From the NCBI GenBank assembly GCA_002897735.1, contig BDTW01000021.1:70813-134812 (forward strand): a stretch of DNA of 64,000 bases, read 5' to 3'. Shown here piece by piece: positions 18,211-58,099 of the stretch (the stretch's first letter is position 1; each line of letters starts with the position of its first letter). Both the position numbers and the translations under genes were made by a program. The stretch is from a bacterium BMS3Bbin13 (GTDB taxonomy: Bacteria > Pseudomonadota > Gammaproteobacteria > 21-64-14). The notes under the pieces were generated by a model. It was not told the origin of the DNA. It ran no database searches and saw only the letters and a list, made by a program, of their open reading frames with translations.

Positions 18211-19140
18211 GTGGCCGAACCGCACCCACCCTCACCGCCCGACACCTTCCAGGACCTGATCCTGGCGCTGCAGCACTACTGGGCCGCGCGCGGCTGCGTG
18301 CTGCTGCAGCCCTACGACCTCGAAGTCGGGGCGGGGACCTTCCATCCGGCGACGTTTCTGCGCGCGGTAGGACCCGAGCCATGGAACGCCGCCTACGTGC
18401 AGCCCTCACGCCGCCCCACGGACGGGCGCTACGGCGAGAATCCGAACCGGTTGCAGCACTACTATCAATTCCAGGTGGTACTCAAACCCTCACCGCCCGA
18501 TATCCAGGATCTGTACCTCGACTCGCTGCGCACACTGGGCCTGGACCCGCTGGTGCACGACATCCGCTTCGTGGAAGACAACTGGGAGTCCCCGACCCTG
18601 GGCGCATGGGGGCTCGGCTGGGAGGTGTGGCTCAACGGCATGGAGATCACGCAGTTCACGTATTTCCAGCAGGTGGGCGGCCTGGACTGCACCCCGGTCA
18701 TGGGGGAGATCACCTACGGACTGGAACGTATCGCCATGTACCTGCAGCGCGTCGACAGCGTCTTCGACCTGACATGGACTACCGGCGCGCAGGGGCGGAT
18801 CTCCTACGGTGACGTGTTCCACCAGAACGAGGTGGAGATGTCCGCTTACAACTTCGAGCACGCCGACGTGGATGCCCTGTTCCGCCGATTCGACACCTGC
18901 GAGGCGGAGAGCCGGCGGTTGGCGGAGCTGGATCTGCCCTTGCCGGCCTACGAGATGGCCCTCAAGGCCTCGCACACCTTCAATCTGCTGGATGCACGCA
19001 ATGCGATCTCCGTGACCGAGCGCCGGCGTTACCTGCTGCGGGTGCGGGCCCTGGCACGCGCCGTGGCGGAGCGTTACCTGGCACGGCGCGCGGCACTGGG
19101 CTTCCCGCTGCAGCATCACCCGGCGGGCGATGCGCCATGA
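18211..19140 (+). CDS. glyQ: Glycine--tRNA ligase alpha subunit
   Basis: [34 protein letters not shown]… is a canonical GlyQ. Confidence 0.95.
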
Positions 19141-21212
19141 CGGACAGCGATGACCTGCTGGTGGAGATCGGCACCGAGGAGTTGCCTCCGCGCGCGTTGC
19201 CGCGGCTCTCGGAGGCCTTCGAGGAGGGGCTGTGCGCCGGCCTCGCGGCCGCCGGGCTGGTACACGGGCGCGCGCACCGCTATGCCGCACCGCGACGCCT
19301 CGCGGTGTGGATCGAGTCGGTAGCCGGCGCCCAGGCGGATCGCACCGAGGCCCGGCGCGGCCCGGCGCTGGCCGCCGCGTTCGACCCCGATGGCCGACCG
19401 ACGTCGGCGGCACAGGGGTTTGCACGCGCGTGCGGGGTGCGCGTGGAAGACCTGGGCCGGCTGGAGACGGACAAGGGGACGTGGCTGCAATTCTCGCGCA
19501 CGGTCCGCGGGCGACGCACGGTCGATCTGCTGCCGGAGATCGTGCGTACCGCACTCGCCGGGCTGCCCATCGCACGGCGCATGCGCTGGGGCGAGGGCCG
19601 CGTGGAGTTCGTGCGCCCGGTACATTGGGCGCTGCTGCTGTTCGGCGAGGCCTGCGTCGAGACGGAACTGCTCGGCGTGCACACCGGGCGGCACAGTCAC
19701 GGCCATCGCTTTCATCACCCGGGTCCGGTGGCGGTGCAACACCCGGGCGACTACGCGCGGGTGCTGCGCGAGCCCGGCCGGGTGCTGGCGGATTTTACCG
19801 TGCGCCGGGACGCGATCCGCGTCGGCGTCGATACGGCGGCCGCGGCGCTCGGCGGGCGGGCCCTGTGGGACGAGGCCCTGCTCGACGAGGTCACCGCGCT
19901 GGTGGAATGGCCGGTGCCGCTCGCGGGCGGCTTCGAACGGCGCTTCCTGGATCTGCCGCGCGAGGTGCTCATTGCGACGCTGCAGATCCACCAGCGCTAT
20001 TTCGCGGTGGAGGACGCCGACGGGGCGCTGCTACCGAACTTCGTGACCGTGAGCAACATCGAGAGCCGGGACCCGGCGCAGGTGATCGCCGGCAACGAGC
20101 GTGTGATACGTCCGCGGCTCGCGGACGCCGCCTTCTTCCGGGAGCAGGACCGCCGGGAGCCCCTCGCGGCGCGGCGCGAGGGGCTGCGCGCCATGGTATT
20201 CCAGGAGCGGCTCGGCTCGCTTCACGACAAGAGCGAGCGCGTAGCGCGATTGGTCACGGAGATCGCGCCGCGCGTCGGTTCCGATCCGGCACTCGCGGTG
20301 CGCGCCGCGCAGCTCGGCCAATGCGACCTGCTGACCCGGATGGTCGGCGAATTCCCGGAACTGCAAGGCGTGATGGGGCGTCACTACGCGCGGCTCGACG
20401 GCGAGCCGGAGGCGGTCGCGGCGGCCATCGAGGAGCAGTACCAACCGCGCCACGCCGGCGACGCGCTTCCGCAGAGCCCGGCGGGTGCGGCGCTGGCGCT
20501 CGCCGAACGGCTCGACACCCTGGTCGGGATCTTCGCCGTCGGGCTGCGACCCGGCGGTGACAAAGACCCGTTCGCGCTGCGCCGCGCGGCGATCGGCATC
20601 CTGCGTATCCTGATCGAGGGCGGGCGCGATCTCGACCTGCAGTGGCTGCTCGATCGCGCCGGCGCGGCGTACCGTGATTTCCCGCGGGCGGCGGACGCGG
20701 TACCGGAGGTGCTCGAATTCATCCTCGAGCGCCTGCGTGCGTATTACCTGGAGCGCGGCATCGCGCCGGACGTGTTCGACGCCGTGCTGGTGTGCCGCCC
20801 GACTCGTCCGGTGGATTTCGACCGCCGCGTGCGGGCGGTGGCACACTTTCGCGGACTTCCCGAGGCGGCGAGCCTCAGCGCGGCCAACAAGCGGCTGCGC
20901 AATATTCTGCGCCAGGCCGGCTATCGCTCCGGTGCCGCGGTGGATCCGGGTCGTCTGCAGGCGCCGGAGGAGCACGCCCTGTACGAGGAATTCGAGAAAT
21001 TGCGCGTCGAGGTGCGCCCGTGGATCGAGGCGGGTGAGTACACGCAGGCCTTGGCGGCCCTTGCCGGACTCAAGGACCCGGTGGACCGGTTCTTCGACGC
21101 GGTGATGGTCATGGCGGAGGACGAGGGGTTGCGAGCCAACCGGCTTGCGCTCCTCCACGCGATCGGCGCGCTGTTCCTGCGGATCGCGGACGTCTCGCGA
21201 CTCCAGGGGTGA
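19137..21212 (+). CDS. glyS: Glycine--tRNA ligase beta subunit
   Basis: [21 protein letters not shown]… is a canonical GlyS N-terminus; 691 aa. It overlaps the glyQ stop. Confidence 0.95.
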
Positions 21213-21269
21213 CGCGGAAAACAGGTGCAGGCGGAGGGTTGAACGGTGGGGACGGGTGAGCGAAGCGAT

Positions 21270-21623
21270 ATGGAAGACGCGACGGGGGCCGGCGACCGGG
21301 ATTCGTACGCGACGATGCTCGCGGCGGTGCAACGATTCCACGACAAGCACCGCTTCCGGGAGACCGGGGGCGAGGAGCTGACGTACCGGATTGCGTTGAT
21401 GGCCGAGGAGCTGGGCGAGATTTCCTCGTGCGTGACCAAGGGCAAGGACCTGGAGCACCTCGCGGAGGAGTGCGCGGATCTGTTCATCCTGTTGCTGGGC
21501 ACCGCGATCTCGGCGCGGTTCGATCTGCGCGACGCCTTTTGGGCCAAGATGGAGCGGCTCATGCGGCGTGAGGCGCGTATGATCAACGGTCGGATCCGGG
21601 TCTCGGAATTCCGCGATACCTGA
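21270..21623 (+). CDS. MazG-like nucleotide pyrophosphohydrolase domain protein
   Basis: Small all-alpha MazG/NTP-PPase fold with EExxE-type motifs (MAEELGEISS…LAEECADLF). The start may be at 21246 or 21270. Confidence 0.6.
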   Translation: MEDATGAGDRDSYATMLAAVQRFHDKHRFRETGGEELTYRIALMAEELGEISSCVTKGKDLEHLAEECADLFILLLGTAISARFDLRDAFWAKMERLMRREARMINGRIRVSEFRDT

Positions 21624-21670
21624 GCGCCCGGGAACGACGCCACGCGGGTGGGGTAAGGAGGCGCACGCGC

Positions 21671-22222
21671 ATGAAACTGGCGATCCTCGACCGGGACGGG
21701 GTCATCAACGAGGACTCCGAGGATTACATCAAGGGTCCCGATGAATGGCGCCCGATCCCCGGGAGCCTGGAGGCCGTGGCGCGGCTCAACCGCGCGGGGT
21801 ACCGCGTAGTGGTCGTAACCAATCAGTCGGCCCTGGCACGGGGCCTGCTCGACAACGACGGTCTGACGGCGATCCACGTCCGCATGCATCGCGAACTGGC
21901 GAACGTCGGGGGCGTGGTCGAGGCGAGCTTCTTCTGTCCGCACGCCCCCGACGACGAGTGCGCCTGCCGCAAGCCCGAACCGGGGCTGTTGTACGAGATC
22001 GCACGGCGGCTCGGGACCTCGCTGGAGGGTGTGCCGATGGTGGGGGACTCGCTGCGCGATCTCCAGGCGGCCACGGAGGCGGGGGCGACCCCCGTGCTGG
22101 TGCGCACGGGTAACGGCGCGCGCACCGCAACGGCGGAGGGATTGCCGGCGGGGCTTGCCGTATTCGCGGATCTGGCGTCGTTCGTCGACGTACACCTCAA
22201 GACGGCGGGCGCGGAGGCGTGA
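21671..22222 (+). CDS. gmhB: D-glycero-beta-D-manno-heptose-1,7-bisphosphate 7-phosphatase (HAD family)
   Basis: The HAD motif ILDRDGVIN with a zinc-binding C-x-H-x-C…C arrangement (FFCPHAPDDECACRKP). Confidence 0.88.
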   Translation: MKLAILDRDGVINEDSEDYIKGPDEWRPIPGSLEAVARLNRAGYRVVVVTNQSALARGLLDNDGLTAIHVRMHRELANVGGVVEASFFCPHAPDDECACRKPEPGLLYEIARRLGTSLEGVPMVGDSLRDLQAATEAGATPVLVRTGNGARTATAEGLPAGLAVFADLASFVDVHLKTAGAEA

Positions 22223-23001
22223 GTTCGGACGGTTTCGCGGGTGATGCGCTCGTGCTGCTACGCTCCGGTGTATACGCGACGGTGACCGTGGCCACCACCG
22301 TCGTCTGGTCGGTGCTGTGCCTGTTCACCTTCCCGCTCCCGGTGCACCTGCGCTATCGCATCATCACCCAATGGACACATTTCAACCTCTGGTGGCTGGC
22401 CGTCAGCTGCGGTCTGCGCTACGAGGTCGAGGGCCGGGAGAATATCCCGCCGGGACCCGCGATCGTCATGTCCAAGCACCAATCGGCCTGGGAGACGATG
22501 GGCCTGCAACTCATCTTCCCGGAGCACACCTGGGTCCTGAAGCGGGAGCTGCTTCGTGTCCCCTTTCTCGGCTGGGCACTGGCGCTGCTCGATCCGGTGG
22601 CGATCGACCGGACGGCCGGGCGACGCGCGGTCGAGCAACTCGTCGAACAGGGTCGCCGTCGACTGCAACAGGGCCGCTGGCTGGTGATCTTCCCAGAGGG
22701 GACGCGGGTCGCCCCCGGTCATGGCGGGCGCTACCGGATCGGCGGTGCGGTGCTCGCAAAGCGCACCGGGTACCCGATCGTACCGGTCGCCCACAATGCC
22801 GGAGACTTCTGGCCGCGCCGCGGTTTCCGCAAACGGCCGGGAGTGATCCGTGTGGTGATCGGCCCACCCATCGACCCGGCGGGGCTCTCCGTAGGACAGA
22901 TCATCGGTCGGGTGGAGGCATGGATCGAGGGCCGGATGCGCTCCATCAGTCCCGCCTACGGCACACCGACGGACACGGAAAAACGCGCCGATAAACAATA
23001 A
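22219..23001 (+). CDS. plsC: 1-acyl-sn-glycerol-3-phosphate acyltransferase (lysophospholipid acyltransferase)
   Basis: The HxxxxD acyltransferase motif region (SKHQSAWET) plus FPEGTR. It lies in the conserved gmhB-plsC arrangement after glyQS. Confidence 0.85.
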   Translation: MSSDGFAGDALVLLRSGVYATVTVATTVVWSVLCLFTFPLPVHLRYRIITQWTHFNLWWLAVSCGLRYEVEGRENIPPGPAIVMSKHQSAWETMGLQLIFPEHTWVLKRELLRVPFLGWALALLDPVAIDRTAGRRAVEQLVEQGRRRLQQGRWLVIFPEGTRVAPGHGGRYRIGGAVLAKRTGYPIVPVAHNAGDFWPRRGFRKRPGVIRVVIGPPIDPAGLSVGQIIGRVEAWIEGRMRSISPAYGTPTDTEKRADKQ

Positions 23002-23021: not shown

Positions 23022-25562
<2,541 letters not shown>

Positions 25563-25595
25563 TCACGTGGAACCTTCCGCGGAATGCGAAGGCGG

Positions 25596-26696
25596 CTACA
25601 GCCGCATCGGCATGACGACGTAACGATATGGGCTGTTGCCCTGCCCCTGAACCAGTGCGCTGCTGTTTCCGTCCGTCATCTCCAGCTCGATCCCCTCCGA
25701 TGGGATCGCCGCGAGGGCATCCAAGAGATAAGTGACATTGAACCCGATTTCCAGGTCTCCGCCCCGATATTGCACCTCCAGCTCCTCCTCGGCCTCCTCC
25801 TGCTCCGGATTGTGCGCCTGCATCTTGAGGATGCCGTTTTCCAGCAGGAGTCGTACGCCGCGATATTTCTCGTTGGACAGAATCGAAGTGCGCGTAAGTG
25901 CCTGGCGAAGGGACTCACGGTCCGCCTTCACGATCTTGTCCCCACCACGCGGGATTACACGTTGGTACTCGGGGAAGCGCCCGTCGATCAACTTTGACGT
26001 AAACCACAGGTCCGGCAGCCGGACCTGGATGTGATTGCTGCCGATGGCGATCTCCACCGGGCTATCACGATCCTCCAGCATCCGAAGGAGTTCCTGGATC
26101 CCTTTTCGCGGCACGATTACTTGGACCCGCTGTGGAACTTTCACGGGGACCGGAAGTTCCCCCAGTGCCAGACGATGACCGTCCGTCGCGACGGCACGAA
26201 GCAGCCCATCCTCGACCTCCAACAGCAGGCCGTTCAGGTAATAACGCACATCCTGCAGCGCCATTGCGAAATGGGTGCGGGTGATCAGTTCACGCAATTC
26301 GTGCTGCGGCATGGTGAAGCTTACTGCATCCTGGCCAACCGCCACGTTTGGGAACCCTTCCGCAGGCAATGTGGCCAAGGTAAAACGGCTCCGACCTGAA
26401 CGCACGGTGGCCCGTTCTCCGCTGACGGCGATCTGCAACTCCGCCTGCTCGGGTAACGTTCGGCAGATATCCAGAAACTTGCGCGCCGGCAGGGTGATTT
26501 CTCCGGGGTCCGTAACGGCTATGGCCAAGCGGGCGACGAGCTGCACCTCGAGGTCGGTCGCAGTCAACGTGATTCCGTTGTCATCCCCCTTGAGCAGCAC
26601 ATTCGACAGAATCGGCAGGGTTTGACGGCGCTCGACGACCCCACTGACGACTTGGAGTGGTTTCAGTAGCTGTTCGCGCTGGATAGTGAATTGCAT
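25596..26696 (-). CDS. dnaN: DNA polymerase III beta sliding clamp
   Basis: MQFTIQREQLLKPLQVVSGVVERRQTLPILSNVLL…; 366 aa. Confidence 0.95.
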   Translation of the reverse strand: MQFTIQREQLLKPLQVVSGVVERRQTLPILSNVLLKGDDNGITLTATDLEVQLVARLAIAVTDPGEITLPARKFLDICRTLPEQAELQIAVSGERATVRSGRSRFTLATLPAEGFPNVAVGQDAVSFTMPQHELRELITRTHFAMALQDVRYYLNGLLLEVEDGLLRAVATDGHRLALGELPVPVKVPQRVQVIVPRKGIQELLRMLEDRDSPVEIAIGSNHIQVRLPDLWFTSKLIDGRFPEYQRVIPRGGDKIVKADRESLRQALTRTSILSNEKYRGVRLLLENGILKMQAHNPEQEEAEEELEVQYRGGDLEIGFNVTYLLDALAAIPSEGIELEMTDGNSSALVQGQGNSPYRYVVMPMRL

Positions 26697-26921
26697 CGTG
26701 TCATCCCAAAGAGCCGATGAATCATTATAGTTAAGTTAAATATTAAAGATTATAGTAATAATAGAGCACGTCCTCATCGGTGGACTTGTGGTTTTTCTCT
26801 TTCAATTACAACTCATTACATGAACACAAACCCATTGGATGACCTGGGGACATCACGTGGAGTGGGTGTGGATAAATCAGACGCTCCGAAATCGTCGGAG
26901 GTTATCCACAGGTGTTCCCCA
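26697..26921. promoter_or_regulatory. Candidate oriC / DNA unwinding element: AT-rich island with two inverted perfect DnaA boxes between dnaA and dnaN
   Basis: About 120 bp at roughly 70% AT (tcattatagttaagttaaatattaaagattatagtaataataga) in a 68% GC genome. TGTGGATAA lies at 26867-26875 and TTATCCACA at 26902-26910. Confidence 0.55.
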
Positions 26922-28256
26922 TTATGTGCTCAGGGTTCTATACAGGTTTTGATAGTCTTCCTTGATCCGGTCATCCAGCTCGGTCAGCTCCCGCACCTTT
27001 CGACAGGCATGCAATACCGTGGTATGATCGCGCCCGCCGAAGCTGTCACCGATTTCCGGCAGGCTGTGGTTCGTCAACTCCTTTGCCAACGCCATGGCCA
27101 GCTGGCGGGGGCGGGTGATGGAGCGGCTGCGACGCTTGGACAGCAGGTCGGACACCCGAATCTTATAATACTCCGCTACGGTCTTCTGGATGTTCTCCAT
27201 GGAGACCAGTTTGTTCTGGAGGGCAATCAGGTCCCGGAGGGCCTCCTTGGCAAGATCCACGGTGATCGGGCAGCCGATGAACCGTGCGTTGGCCACGACA
27301 CGGCGCAACGCGCCTTCCAGCTCCCGCACATTGGAACGAACGCGTTTGGCGACGAAGAAGGCCACCTCGTTGGGGAGCTGCACCTTGAACTGTTCCGCTT
27401 TGCTGATCAGGATTGCGACGCGTGTTTCGAGTTCCGGTGGATCAATGGCGACGGTCAGTCCCCAACCGAAGCGGGATTTGAGCCGTTCTTCCAACCCCTT
27501 GACCTCTTTCGGGTAGCGGTCGCAGGTAACGATGACCTGCTGCTGGTTCTCGAGCAGGGCATTGAATGTGTGGAAGAATTCCTCCTGGGAACGCTCCTTG
27601 CCGGCGAAAAATTGAATATCGTCGATGAGCAGGGCGTCGACCGATCGATAAAAACGTTTGAACTCGTTGATCGTGTTATGTTGCAGGGCCTTGATCATGT
27701 CGCCGACAAAACGCTCGGAGTGAAGATAGATGACCCGCGCCGAGGGATTGGTCAGCAGCATCTGATTGCCGACCGCCTGCATGAGATGAGTCTTGCCGAG
27801 ACCGACGCCCCCATAGATGAACAGGGGGTTGTAAGCGCAACCCGGGTTGTCGGCAACCTGCCGGGATGCGGCCCGCGCGAGCTGGTTGGACTTGCCTTCG
27901 ACGAAGCTGTCGAAGACGAACTGCGGGCTGAGAAAGCTGCTGCGCACCACTTCCTGCCCTGCTTGAAAGCGCGGGCCGGCGGCGGGTCGGGCCGCCACAG
28001 GTGTGGGGCGTTGGGTACTGCCGATTTCGAGCAGCACGCGCGCGGAGCGCCCGTGCGTCTGATACGAGACCACCTCGGTGATTTGTCGGTAATAGTGTTC
28101 GCGTACCCAGTCGAGGACGAAGCGGTTTGGTGCGAGCAGGTGCAGGGCATCGTCTTCTTCAACGGCATGAAGCGGACGAATCCAGGTGTTGAACTGCTGC
28201 TCGGACAACTCGCCTTCGAGACGGTGAAGACAACTTTGCCACATTGAACCGACCAC
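26922..28256 (-). CDS. dnaA: Chromosomal replication initiator protein DnaA
   Basis: [25 protein letters not shown]…, the AAA+ Walker A ([10 protein letters not shown]) and a C-terminal DnaA-box-binding domain. Confidence 0.95.
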
Positions 28257-28371
28257 TGAGTCAGGGCCTCTCTTATCGTTGTAGGTGGCTGCCGAGCGGC
28301 GCTGCGGAAGACCAAGTAGTCTACCGCGCCGCGGCCCGTCGATCTATACCCGCGGAGAGCCGACGATTCTA

Positions 28372-28400
28372 TTGACAGCGACAGGACGAACGGAATAATC
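28372..28400 (+). promoter_or_regulatory. Sigma70-type promoter for rpmH
   Basis: TTGACA (28372-28377), a 17-nt spacer, then ATAATC (28395-28400), about 55 bp upstream of the rpmH ATG. Confidence 0.55.
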
Positions 28401-28456
28401 TGCTGTTTTTTCAGCGAAACCTTTTCGACTCCCTCAATTGCTCGCAGGTCCTAGCC

Positions 28457-28591
28457 ATGAAAAGAACTTTCCAGCCCAGTAACCTACGTCGCAAACGGAC
28501 CCACGGGTTCCGCGCGCGCATGAGCACCAAGAACGGACGCAGTATTCTCAAGGCGCGCCGGGCGAAAGGGCGCGCGCGCCTGTCGGCCTGA
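28457..28591 (+). CDS. rpmH: 50S ribosomal protein L34
   Basis: [44 protein letters not shown] (44 aa). It is absent from the ORF track because it is under 60 aa. Confidence 0.95.
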
Positions 28592-44595: not shown

Positions 44596-48270
<3,675 letters not shown>

Positions 48271-48363
48271 AGGCGGGAGGGGAAGCGGTGTGTCGGGCTC
48301 GTTCGCCGCGGGTCGCCGGATCGGCTTCACGTCCGGCTCGAGGCACGCCACTATACCATGGGT

Positions 48364-48387
48364 CGTTTCCGCCCCGGGGCGGAAACG
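48364..48387. promoter_or_regulatory. 24-bp perfect palindrome in the divergent metH-ccmA intergenic region
   Basis: CGTTTCCGCCCCGGGGCGGAAACG is its own reverse complement. It is followed by a second inverted repeat, GGATCgtttcggGATCC. Confidence 0.4.
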
Positions 48388-48513
48388 GATCGTTTCGGGA
48401 TCCGCATCGCGGCGTCCGGGAACGGGGTTCATGTTACACTGTGCCGCCCCGGGCGGCGTCCATGCATCTGGCTGCATCTGGCGACGGCGGGAACCGTTGC
48501 GGACAAAGCCACC

Positions 48514-49173
48514 GTGGATGACAGACCTGAGATCGCGGCGCTTGCGCGGCGTGCCCCCCGCCTGGAGGCGCGCGCGCTGGAGTGCGTGCGTAACGATCGC
48601 GTCCTGTTTCACGATCTGGACGCCGCCCTGGAGCCGGGGCAGGTCCTGCAGGTCGAAGGTCCCAACGGTTGCGGAAAGACCAGCCTGTTGCGGATCCTGT
48701 GCGGTCTGAGCCTGCCCGGCGCCGGCGAGGTATATTGGGGCGATGCCCCGCTCCCGGAGGTGCGCGCCGAGTACTACGAGGCCCTCGCCTATGTCGGCCA
48801 TCGGCACGGGGTCAAGGGGGAGTTGACACCGATAGAGAATCTGCGCTTTCATCGGGCGCTCGCGGGCGGGACACCCGACCGGGTCCCGGGCGACGCCTTG
48901 GCGCACCTCGGCCTGGAGGGCTTCGAGGACGTTCCGTGCCGCACCCTCTCCGAGGGACAGCGCCGGCGCGTGGCGCTGGCGCGGCTGCTCATGACCCGGC
49001 GACCGCTATGGATTCTGGACGAACCCCTGACGGCCCTGGACCGCTCCGGCGTGGCGGTGGTGGAAGGGCTGATTCGGGATCACGCCCGATCGGGGGGCAT
49101 GGTAATGATCACTACTCACCAGGCGATCCGGCTCGAGGGCTGCGTGCTCGGCCGGTTGCGGCTCGGCGGGTGA
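48514..49173 (+). CDS. ccmA: Cytochrome c biogenesis heme exporter ATP-binding protein CcmA
   Basis: …[46 protein letters not shown]…[14 protein letters not shown]…LWILDEP… is colinear with E. coli CcmA. A GTG start at 48514 is assumed. Confidence 0.85.
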
Positions 49174-55707: not shown

Positions 55708-55924
55708 GCCTGCGGGAAGCGATCGCCGCGGGGGCGGAGCCCCCGTCCGGCGGACGCGCCGCCGGTACCGTGCGACGTGGTCCGCAGCCCCCTTCTGCGG
55801 GGACCCCGGGGGTTTGCGAAGGCTCCCCGCCGATGGATCCTCGCGCCCCGGTGTCGTGTAGCGCCTTCCTTGACACCCCCCGCACCCGCCGATAGAGTCC
55901 CGGCTGCACGCTTCAGGTGGCCCG

Positions 55925-56085
55925 AGGGCGTCTCGCCCGAGGGATGAAACGGGAAGCCGGTGCGCACCGGGAACCATCCCGGCGGCCATTCCGGCGCTGC
56001 CCCCGCAACGGTAGGCGAGTCAAGGTCCGGCATCATGCCACTGTGCAACCGCACGGGAAGGCGCCGGATCGGACTACGGTCCACT
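55925..56085 (+). ncRNA. Cobalamin (adenosylcobalamin) riboswitch in the btuB leader
   Basis: GGGAAGCCGGTGCGCACCGGGAA…GCTGCCCCCGCAACGGTAGGCG…CATGCCACTGTGCAACCGCACGGGAAGGC contains the conserved GGTG…CCCGCAACGGTA core and the B12 box (GCCACTG). It lies 150-300 bp upstream of a TonB-dependent receptor. Confidence 0.8.
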
Positions 56086-56233
56086 CGCGAGCCCGGAGAC
56101 CGGCCTGTAGCGTCCTGGTCGGTGCTGCGAGGGGCGGCACGGCGGACCCGCTCGCCCGTCCGCGCGTCATCGGTCCCTTCGCACCCGGTTCATCAACCGC
56201 ACACGCGGGTGCGCGTGGCGAAGGGAGCGTTCC

Positions 56234-58099
56234 ATGAGAATAACCCACCGGGCCGGCGCGGCCCTTCTCCTGCTGGGCTGCGCCGTCGGCGCGGCCCGTG
56301 CCGACGAGTTGATCACCTCACCGATCGTCGTCACGGCCACCCGGACCGCGGAGACCGCGGACCAGACCCTGTCCTCGGTCACGGTCATCACGCGCACGGA
56401 CATCCGACGCAGCGGCGCGGTGACGCTGCCGCAACTCCTTCGGCAGGTGAACGGGTTGGACGTCGCCAGCAGCGGCCCGTTGGGGAAACAGACTTCGGTA
56501 TTCCTGCGCGGAACCGACTCCAACGACGTCCTGGTCATGATCGACGGCGTGCGCATCGGCTCGGTAACCAGCGGCGGGGTGTCCTGGGAACTGCTGCCGC
56601 TCTCCGAGATCCAGCGCATCGAGATCGTGCGCGGGCCCCATTCCAGCCTCTACGGTTCCAGTGCGGTCGGCGGCGTGATCCAGATCTTCACGCGCAAGGG
56701 GCGCGGCCCGTTGCGCGCCGGGGCCGATGTCACCTATGGAAGTCACGAGACCTACCAGGCCTTCGGCGGGGTCTCGGGCTCCGTCGGACGCGGCTGGATC
56801 AACCTGCGCGGCGGCGGTCTGGGTACCGAGGGGATCAACGTGAGCCGGCCGGTCCTGGGTTTCAACGAGCCGGACCGGGACGGGTACTACAACGATTCGT
56901 TCACCGCGGGCGCCGGTTACCATTGGGACAACGGCACCGCGGTGCGCGTCAATGCGCTGCGTGCCACCGGTACGACCCGGTACGACGACACTCCGCCCTC
57001 GTCGTTCTACACGTCCCCGAATGCCGACCGGTTTCTCCAGGAGGTGGTCGGCGGACTCGTCCGGCTGCAGCCGACGGAGGCTTGGACCGTGCGCCTGCGC
57101 GCCGGTCGCAGCCTGGACGACCGCACCAGCTTCCGCGAGGGCTCGGCCGTCGCGCCCTCGCGCTTCGACAGCGAGCGCATCACCGCGAGCTGGCAGAACG
57201 AGTTCGCCGTCGGCCGGCATCAGTCGATCACCGCGGGGATCGACTACCTGGACGACCGTGTCGACAGTACCACGCACTATGATCGGACCTCGCGCTACGA
57301 TGTGGGGGCGTTCGCCCAGTATCAGCTTCGCCTCGGGCGCAACGACCTCCTCGGCTCGCTACGTCTCGATCACGACGAGCAGTTCGGCAACCACACCACC
57401 GGCAGCATCGCCTGGGGATACCGGTTGACCCGCGCCCTGCACGCCACCGCCTCCTATGGCACCGCGTTCCGCGCGCCCACCTTCAACGATCTGTACTATC
57501 CCGGCTACAGCAACCCGAACCTGCGTCCGGAGACCTCGGACACCGTCGAGGTGGGGCTGCGCGGCAATCATCCGTGGGGCCGCTGGCACGTGGACGCCTA
57601 TCGCACCGGCGTCCGTGACCTGATTCAGTTCGTGTATCCCGCTACGCAGAACATCGGGCGCACAACGATCCGGGGCGTCGAGGCCGGTGTGGATACGCGC
57701 ATCCGCGGATGGAAGGTGCAACTGGGGCTGGCCTTGACACGCCCGCACGATGACATCAAAGGCACGACCCTGATCCGGCGCACCGAGCGCTCGTTCAAGG
57801 TCGCGCTGGACCGCGGGTTCGGCCGTGCGCACGTGCACGTGGACTGGGCCGTCGAGGGGCGCCGGTTCGACACCTTCTTCAATCCGGTGACGTTCCAATC
57901 CGAGCGCGTGCGCCTGTCCGGATACGGCCTGGTCGACGCGAGCCTCGAATACGCCCTGACCCCGAATTGGAGCCTGCACGCCGCGGTGGACAACCTGTTC
58001 GACCGGGGGTACCAAACCATGTTCGGTTACAATCAGCTCGGTCGCACCGTGTTCGTCGGAGTCCGCTACCGCGGCACCCCGTGGGGCGGGGGCGTGTGA
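56234..58099 (+). CDS. btuB: TonB-dependent outer-membrane vitamin B12 receptor BtuB
   Basis: A signal peptide, the TonB box (DELITSPIVVTATR), a plug and a 22-strand barrel ending in an aromatic C-terminus. It is preceded by a cobalamin riboswitch. Confidence 0.88.
   Translation: MRITHRAGAALLLLGCAVGAARADELITSPIVVTATRTAETADQTLSSVTVITRTDIRRSGAVTLPQLLRQVNGLDVASSGPLGKQTSVFLRGTDSNDVLVMIDGVRIGSVTSGGVSWELLPLSEIQRIEIVRGPHSSLYGSSAVGGVIQIFTRKGRGPLRAGADVTYGSHETYQAFGGVSGSVGRGWINLRGGGLGTEGINVSRPVLGFNEPDRDGYYNDSFTAGAGYHWDNGTAVRVNALRATGTTRYDDTPPSSFYTSPNADRFLQEVVGGLVRLQPTEAWTVRLRAGRSLDDRTSFREGSAVAPSRFDSERITASWQNEFAVGRHQSITAGIDYLDDRVDSTTHYDRTSRYDVGAFAQYQLRLGRNDLLGSLRLDHDEQFGNHTTGSIAWGYRLTRALHATASYGTAFRAPTFNDLYYPGYSNPNLRPETSDTVEVGLRGNHPWGRWHVDAYRTGVRDLIQFVYPATQNIGRTTIRGVEAGVDTRIRGWKVQLGLALTRPHDDIKGTTLIRRTERSFKVALDRGFGRAHVHVDWAVEGRRFDTFFNPVTFQSERVRLSGYGLVDASLEYALTPNWSLHAAVDNLFDRGYQTMFGYNQLGRTVFVGVRYRGTPWGGGV

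Follow-up and report, generated by a model that had tools for sequence, protein, structure and literature searches.

The 64-kb stretch of DNA analysed in this work, hereafter the window, carries gyrB, dnaN and dnaA on the minus strand. The spacer between the last two genes (26697–26921, 225 bp) is studied here as a candidate for the chromosomal origin of replication (oriC). The gene order of the window is glyQ-glyS-...-plsC, then gyrB-dnaN-dnaA, then rpmH-rnpA-yidC-mnmE, which corresponds to ordinary chromosomal synteny; downstream of mnmE lies a gene for an MscS-type channel, not mnmG. DnaA has 440 amino acids (aa) when counted from the ATG at 28244 and 444 aa from the upstream GTG at 28256, and identical metagenome contigs have been annotated with one or the other length. 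Its nearest named relatives are the DnaA of ‘Chromatiales bacterium 21-64-14’ (86% identity) and those of several Ectothiorhodospiraceae metagenome-assembled genomes (MAGs; about 74–75%), and an identical DnaN is present on metagenome contigs and in one MAG. The host is an uncultured, GC-rich, Chromatiales/Ectothiorhodospiraceae-like gammaproteobacterium, known only from metagenome assemblies.

Read from dnaA to dnaN, the spacer presents a pair of inverted strong DnaA boxes, weak box-like sites, overlapping degenerate boxes, a GC cluster, DnaA-trios and an AT-rich element, followed by dnaN (Table 1). The dnaN gene starts at 26696 and is transcribed away from the AT-rich element.

Table 1. Predicted features of the dnaA-dnaN spacer and of the adjoining genes, in window coordinates
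Feature	Position	Strand	Length	Remarks
gyrB	23022–25502	minus		Pfam; start called at 25436 on public contigs
dnaN, sliding clamp	25596–26696	minus		Pfam DNA_pol3_beta domains 1–3
dnaN leader and ATG	26694–26715	minus		
AT-rich DNA unwinding element	26716–26752			highest AT content and lowest stability in the window
Four DnaA-trios	26753–26764	plus		TAG TAA TAA TAG = 3′-GAT AAT AAT GAT-5′; dnaA-sense CTA TTA TTA CTA
GC-rich cluster	26765–26778		14 bp	GATGAGGACGTGCT (dnaA direction); between proximal box and trios
Two degenerate DnaA boxes, one-base overlap	26779–26795	minus		AAAACCACA (3 mismatches), AAGTCCACC (4 mismatches); beside the unwinding element
Upstream AT-rich segment	about 26796–26822			GTAATTGAAAGAGAAAAA (dnaA direction); alignment consensus
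Three weak box-like sites, forward	26834–26864	minus		read from sequence
Weak site	26834–26842	minus		TCATCCAAT, 3 mismatches
Weak site	26845–26853	minus		ATGTCCCCA, 3 mismatches
Weak site	26856–26864	minus		CACTCCACG, 4 mismatches
Perfect DnaA box, second of the inverted pair	26867–26875	minus		TTATCCACA in dnaA-to-dnaN direction (forward orientation); TGTGGATAA on plus strand
Variable inter-box segment with small hairpin	26876–26901		26 bp	
Short hairpin CTCCGA-cgatt-TCGGAG	26884–26900	minus		T-rich tail after it; weak-terminator-like
Perfect DnaA box, first of the inverted pair	26902–26910	plus		TTATCCACA on plus strand; TGTGGATAA in dnaA-to-dnaN direction (reverse orientation)
dnaA stop codon	26922–26924	minus		
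dnaA, replication initiator	26922–28256	minus		likely ATG at 28244; Pfam DnaA_N, Bac_DnaA, Bac_DnaA_C
rpmH-dnaA spacer	28245–28457		213 bp	promoters only
rpmH	start 28458	plus		
yidC, mnmE	right of dnaA	plus		Pfam

The two perfect boxes in inverted orientation, which a first-pass annotation of the window had pointed out, are indeed present, and the 64 kb contain no other perfect DnaA box. By chance 0.08 would be expected, and a count of two was reached in none of 100 shuffles. They lie 26 bp apart, the first of them 11 bp past the dnaA stop codon. Together with the CTCCGA/TCGGAG repeat between them, they form one long imperfect palindrome right after the dnaA stop (26860–26925), whose folding as single-stranded DNA gives −13.1 kcal/mol (z = −4.0). 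A conserved hairpin between the boxes was considered and rejected, since the outer stem is made of the boxes themselves and the inner stem, whose sequence differs among close relatives, has only weak covariation. The Rfam search returned no match in or near the spacer, and in the terminator scan terminator-like sites appeared at chance frequency, not above it.

The AT-rich island described earlier was also recovered. The AT content of the best 120-bp segment (26717–26836) is exactly 70%, whereas the window as a whole averages 33%; the segment 26724–26763, with 90% AT, is the top 40-mer for AT in the whole 64 kb; and the nearest-neighbour energy of 26716–26765 gives it the lowest stability of all 50-step stretches (z = 6.1). 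Other intergenic regions of the window have 22–44% AT overall, and none of them exceeds 70% AT over 40 bp. Within the unwinding element begin two 15-nt direct repeats (26717–26731 and 26742–26756), each containing ATTATAGT, and the AT-rich block includes two perfect TATAAT hexamers on the dnaN-sense strand. As neither hexamer has a −35 partner, no sigma-70 promoter passes the scan of the dnaN strand. The spacer contains no GATC site.

Four putative DnaA-trios adjoin the AT-rich element. In the published polarity, the strand on which the box is followed by the GC cluster, the trios and the unwinding element carries 5′-CTA-3′, and DnaA binds the complementary 3′-GAT-5′, which is explicit in the Helicobacter pylori paper; the example given for Clostridioides difficile is CTA CTA CTA TTA CTA CTA. 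Because this polarity puts 5′-CTA-3′ on the box-forward strand, the four trios of the window fit the consensus 3′-[G/A]A[T/A]-5′ exactly. Another reading of the trios, as TAT TAT TAC TAT AAT on the dnaA-sense strand, was dropped, since the C. difficile and H. pylori papers give 5′-CTA-3′ there. The trios lie where the schemes of Weigel and of Pelliciari and coworkers require them, with the proximal box on one side and the AT-rich region on the other, and most of the 33 related spacers likewise have a CTA straight after the GC cluster. The GC cluster keeps its length of 14 bp in the related loci L090, L093, L089, L087 and L088, while its sequence varies. The trios and the degenerate boxes beside the unwinding element, which the first-pass annotation had missed, tie the AT-rich island mechanistically to DnaA.

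Five further sites of the spacer, with 3–4 mismatches, have a conserved TCCAC core and counterparts closer to the consensus in relatives. The counterpart of ATGTCCCCA, for example, is ATATCCACA in L089 (1 mismatch) and ATATCCCCA in L090 and L093 (2 mismatches). The TCCAC/CATCCA cores of the weak sites are invariant across the window and its three closest relatives, and the spacer has four copies of TCCAC/GTGGA where 0.63 would be expected. The degenerate proximal boxes can also be written as GGTGGACTT (4 mismatches) and TGTGGTTTT (3 mismatches); the 4-mismatch box lies 14 bp from the trios and its 3-mismatch partner 22 bp. At the aligned proximal site, L090, L087, L088, L092, L002, L003 and L072 have 0–2 mismatches, the sequence being AAATCCACA in L090 (2 mismatches), TTATCCAGC in L087, TTCTCCACA in L092 (1 mismatch) and TTATCCACA in L002, L003 and L072. 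The upstream AT-rich segment aligns with a conserved AAG..ATTGAT block of the relatives, which fits the consensus of the integration host factor (IHF); in the copy of the window the IHF core has two mismatches, a poor match, and the alignment gives a hint of a possible IHF site.

Within the 5′ part of gyrB, at 25210–25246, two further DnaA boxes with one mismatch each (TTATCCACT and TCATCCACA) stand in inverted orientation, separated by 19 bp. One of these boxes, which are candidates by sequence, probably derives from the codons GTG GAT AA. of the conserved V-D-N motif of GyrB.

The spacer was aligned with those of relatives whose DnaA is 97% (L090, L093), 95% (L089), 91% (L087), 86% (L088), 76% (L091) and 75% (L092) identical to that of the window. 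A four-way comparison was made with the closest ones (L090, L093 and L089; 95–97%), in which the four-fold degenerate sites of dnaA and dnaN served as neutral background: they are 64–80% identical pairwise between the window and the other three, and 54% of them are invariant across the four genomes. Of the 12 positions that make up a perfect box and its flanks, all are invariant in both cases (24/24 together, P = 4e-7), against 8 of the 26 positions between the boxes. In the trio/AT-rich block (26716–26764), 43 of 49 positions are invariant (P = 6e-7), with 93% in the 15-nt block that contains the trios (26750–26764) and 85% in the block 26716–26749; the values are 78% for the proximal degenerate boxes and 47% for the GC cluster. 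These proportions indicate purifying selection on the boxes and on the trio/AT-rich block, and neutral evolution of the inter-box DNA. Six contigs with identical DnaN have identical spacers and, therefore, bring no information on variation.

With the DnaA of the window, 80 gammaproteobacterial loci were found, in which rpmH was located by a peptide pattern, and they separated into two classes. The short class (51 loci, plus L052, where dnaN was not found) includes enterics, Pseudomonas, Vibrio, Shewanella, Legionella and Halomonadaceae; its dnaA-dnaN spacers have a median of 33 bp and no boxes, and its rpmH-dnaA spacers, in the 34 loci with rpmH found, have a median of 578 bp, a mean of 2.6 boxes and 83% AT over 40 bp. 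The long class (28 loci and the window) has dnaA-dnaN spacers with a median of 226 bp, about two boxes (at most 1 mismatch) and 80% AT over 40 bp, and rpmH-dnaA spacers with a median of about 230 bp and 62% AT over 40 bp (22 loci with rpmH found). Across the 80 loci the lengths of the two spacers vary inversely: where the dnaA-dnaN spacer is long and boxed, the rpmH-dnaA spacer is short, and vice versa.

About 30 spacers of distant relatives (Lysobacterales, Chromatiaceae, Sedimenticolaceae, Wenzhouxiangella and other gammaproteobacteria) are laid out like that of the window. Near the dnaA stop they have a reverse box and, about 26 bp further on, forward boxes; the AT-rich ATTGAT block comes next, then one more forward box in proximal position, the GC cluster, trios of CTA type and, before dnaN, an AT-rich run. 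The strict published pattern requires a box with no more than 2 mismatches, then 0–16 nt of spacer and 3 trios or more; of the 33 long spacers, 13 contain it in canonical polarity, whereas shuffles give 3.5 ± 1.7. L090 is one of the loci that pass it, with 2 mismatches, a 14-bp spacer and four trios. When the central A was placed on the box-forward strand, the box-plus-trinucleotide pattern was found in 26/33 spacers, against 5.1 ± 2.1 in shuffles. The Lysobacterales read CTA CTA CCA CCA, and their distal units are 3′-GGT-5′ on the canonical strand, without the central adenine. The stronger periodicity of the box-forward strand (26/33 vs 13/33), together with these 3′-GGT-5′ units, hints at deviant trios or at another strand preference in these gammaproteobacteria.

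Based on these sequence comparisons, we propose that the dnaA-dnaN spacer is the chromosomal oriC, of the ancestral dnaA-dnaN type, with a probability of about 0.8. The proposal of an origin at this place had already been made in the first-pass annotation, and it is now supported by the uniqueness of the boxes, the order of the elements, the selection on them, the shared layout, the complementary lengths of the two spacers, and the literature. The order of box, GC cluster, CTA TTA TTA CTA, AT-rich element and dnaN has the same polarity as in Bacillus subtilis, C. difficile and H. pylori and, the degenerate proximal box apart, fits the origin criteria of Weigel.

In the mechanism that we envisage, DnaA would be anchored on the two high-affinity inverted boxes just past the dnaA stop codon. 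ATP-bound DnaA would then fill the weaker forward sites cooperatively, or reach them by looping, and the overlapping degenerate boxes would be the last weak sites to be filled. From there, the DnaA oligomer could cross the 14-bp GC cluster onto the trios of the plus strand, which would be stretched; the adjacent 90% AT element would open, and the helicase would be loaded there. Transcription of dnaN would lead away from the site of opening, a direction common to all confirmed origins. To our knowledge, DnaD and DnaB-type helpers are not expected in a proteobacterium.

Several observations weigh against this assignment. Besides the two perfect boxes, the spacer has no site within 2 mismatches of TTATCCACA, and the box adjoining the unwinding element carries 3–4 mismatches. 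The relaxed consensus TTWTNCACA occurs 4 times against 0.94 expected, a count that other parts of the window also reach. In most AT-rich spacers, runs of central-A trinucleotides are not longer than in dinucleotide shuffles; hence the call of the trios rests on position and conservation. Except for the two boxes, the blocks used in the binomial tests were bounded after the alignment was seen, and their P values are indicative only. The strand bias of the genes is weak, with 66% of the coding bases on the minus strand to the left and 57% on the plus strand to the right. The flip of gene orientation around dnaA, which had been taken as a sign of bidirectional replication, holds locally but not beyond, as glyQ/glyS and three more plus-strand genes (18211–23001) lie to the left of gyrB. 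In the 64-kb window the cumulative G−C minimum falls at 18570, 8 kb off the spacer, and a split of the GC skew at 26800 has p = 0.21 in a block permutation test; a stretch of 64 kb does not suffice for GC skew to be informative about the origin. Finally, neither mnmG nor parAB was found among the genes of the window, and the origin could possibly lie in another part of the chromosome, upstream of mnmG.

The degenerate proximal box deserves attention. For Weigel (bioRxiv 10.1101/2025.08.05.668638), an origin must have a consensus box of R1 type, in reverse orientation and some two helical turns away from the unwinding element. In the window the position and orientation of such a box are right, 14 bp beyond the trios, and its sequence is degenerate. 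The box-plus-trio search of Pelliciari et al. (2021) allows a box with at most 2 mismatches at 0–16 bp from the first trio and a partner with at most 4, and Ori-Finder 2022 labels boxes adjoining trios with up to 4 mismatches. The proximal boxes of the window have 3 and 4; being degenerate, the proximal box leaves the window one mismatch outside the published box-plus-trio thresholds. We hold it possible, if unlikely, that the lineage uses a minimal split origin, in which two high-affinity inverted boxes around a hairpin stand about 100 bp from the opening site and the proximal box has decayed to 3–4 mismatches. If so, the trios would receive DnaA through looping or through cooperative filling over a long range, and not from an adjacent strong box. 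A comparable case is the distal box of incC in B. subtilis, which acts at 132–462 bp from the trio-proximal boxes, in either orientation and probably by looping (Richardson et al. 2019); in the window about 100 bp separate the strong boxes from the weak trio-proximal ones.

A close counterpart is the basal unwinding system described at incC of B. subtilis and, in corresponding form, at oriC2 of C. difficile and of H. pylori (PMC6669920, PMC8287927, PMC7561715, PMC8235120). It shares with the window the GC cluster, the 5′-CTA-3′-type trios and the AT-rich element, in the same order and polarity, as well as the fused or overlapping proximal boxes, and in B. subtilis and C. difficile also the location between dnaA and dnaN. 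The left half of E. coli oriC and Pseudomonas oriC1 follows the same logic (unwinding element, trios, reverse R1-type box, possible IHF site and box array), and the overlapping proximal boxes of the window occupy the position of box R1 in E. coli. On the other hand, these two origins have far more consensus boxes than the spacer, and they lie elsewhere, between mnmG and mioC in E. coli and in the rpmH-dnaA interval in Pseudomonas. E. coli oriC has multiple GATC sites, in contrast to the spacer, and mnmG is outside the window; the origin is thus not of the E. coli type. Nor is it of the Pseudomonas type, as the rpmH-dnaA spacer, which in the Pseudomonas/Halomonas/enteric class is long and contains boxes, has here 213 bp and no box within 2 mismatches.

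Among gammaproteobacteria, a close parallel is found in Xanthomonas and other Lysobacterales, whose origin is likewise placed between dnaA and dnaN in a spacer of about 210–280 bp. A recent Xanthomonas genome paper, citing Yen et al. (2002; Appl Environ Microbiol 68:2924), places conserved oriC DnaA boxes between the two genes, and the reference list of another Xanthomonas genome paper includes the same work, on the oriC region of X. campestris. The precedent of Xanthomonas-type genomes, invoked by the first-pass annotation, is sustained by this genome paper and by the Lysobacterales loci, which share the layout. With a DnaA only about 55% identical to that of the window, the loci L068–L080 align with the window element for element, from the reverse box through the AT-rich run before dnaN. 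The differences are that the proximal box of Lysobacterales is usually near-consensus, whereas that of the window has 3–4 mismatches, and that their distal trios are CCA or CAA, whereas those of the window are TTA or CTA.

Thioalkalivibrio sulfidiphilus HL-EbGr7 belongs to the Ectothiorhodospiraceae, the family of several of the relatives with 74–75% DnaA identity. Its oriC was predicted in the 251-bp dnaA-dnaN gap, the rpmH-dnaA gap having 193 bp and the gap upstream of mnmG 71 bp (Weigel 2025, bioRxiv 10.1101/2025.08.05.668638). The gap sizes of 251/193 bp resemble the 225/213 bp of the window, a comparison of two predicted origins by gap size. In T. sulfidiphilus the order from parB to gyrB matches that of Pseudomonas, whereas the window has the MscS-type channel gene after mnmE.

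The arrangement also bears on the possibility that the spacer is only regulatory, which we consider quite unlikely. Its contents would then be the terminator of dnaA or a hairpin at the end of its mRNA, a pair of boxes through which DnaA is titrated or regulates its own gene, and an AT-rich promoter for dnaN; the origin would lie elsewhere, for instance upstream of mnmG, as in E. coli and for the second origin of Pseudomonas. The two TATAAT hexamers on the dnaN-sense strand, the terminator-like hairpin between the boxes and the number of strong boxes, just two, agree with such a role; in addition, the window does not include the mnmG region, and its GC skew does not place the origin at the spacer. 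However, no dnaN-strand sigma-70 promoter passes the scan, and terminator-like sites are at chance frequency. Gammaproteobacteria with the origin elsewhere keep a boxless spacer with a median of 33 bp, which implies that a dnaN promoter or a dnaA terminator needs no 225 bp. The order of box, GC cluster, trios and AT-rich element is specific to origins and conserved; in Thioalkalivibrio the gap upstream of mnmG has only 71 bp and the origin was predicted at dnaA-dnaN. Besides, regulation and origin function are compatible with each other.

A bipartite origin, in which the spacer would be paired with the one between rpmH and dnaA (the situation of B. subtilis and H. pylori), is very unlikely, and so is a second, distant origin like those of Pseudomonas and Halomonadaceae. 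Bipartite origins flanking dnaA and dual origins are documented, and the rpmH-dnaA spacer is strongly conserved, with 78% mean column identity over six genomes, above the value of the origin spacer. In L087 and L088 it carries TGTGGATCG, where the window has TATAGATCG at the aligned position; a DnaA box upstream of dnaA may thus have been lost in the lineage of the window. Nevertheless, as stated in the first-pass annotation, the rpmH-dnaA spacer of the window presents the rpmH promoter (TTGACA, 16 nt, AATAAT; 11/12 matches) and no box with 2 mismatches or fewer. Its AT content reaches at most 0.62 over 40 bp, and its conserved blocks coincide with the promoter hexamers. No second cluster of DnaA boxes was found anywhere in the 64 kb, and for lack of such a cluster upstream of dnaA the origin of the window appears not to be bipartite, unlike that of B. 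subtilis. By these sequence features, the rpmH-dnaA spacer appears to be no origin.

The chance that the spacer is a random AT-rich patch or a remnant of foreign DNA with two box-like 9-mers is practically negligible: dnaA, dnaN and gyrB do have lower GC than the rest of the window, but none of the 100 shuffles reached two perfect boxes, the neighbouring gene order is that of an ordinary chromosome, and the conservation data, with elements kept in position over about 30 lineages and under purifying selection, effectively refute this explanation.

Taken as an oriC, the dnaA-dnaN spacer is a sound but ordinary finding, as the arrangement is already known in related bacteria, and it leaves the current understanding unchanged. 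Mildly unusual are the design with two strong boxes and a degenerate proximal box, and the stronger periodicity of the family on the box-forward strand. With about 30 aligned examples, a whole branch of the Gammaproteobacteria is seen to keep the ancestral dnaA-dnaN origin with its module of box, GC cluster, trios and AT-rich element, whereas in the other branch the gap between the two genes collapsed to a few tens of bp and the origin moved. For an uncultured lineage, the assignment of the origin is useful for orienting replichores, for coverage-based estimates of growth rate, and for annotation.

Some other characteristics of the locus were observed. In the classical cluster recF follows dnaN, but it is absent from the dnaN-gyrB interval of the window and of the relatives with at least 86% DnaA identity (within the set L087–L093); this gap has 159 bp in the window (25437–25595) and up to about 260 bp in the same relatives. 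L091 and L092 (75–76% DnaA identity) present the classical dnaA-dnaN-recF-gyrB order. The genes dnaA, dnaN and gyrB (23022–28256) have a GC content of 55–60% and a third-position GC of 0.72–0.75, lower than the other genes of the window, for which the third-position GC is mostly 0.8–0.9, the mean GC of the window being 67%. An open reading frame of 475 aa on the plus strand (26820–28247), antisense to dnaA, is almost certainly a stop-poor artefact of the high GC and not a gene. Far from the spacer, a cobalamin riboswitch (Rfam RF00174, 95.9 bits) lies at 55898–56122 on the plus strand, upstream of a TonB-dependent receptor gene (56234–58099), and a gene for a B12-dependent methionine synthase (44596–48906, minus strand) is located near it.

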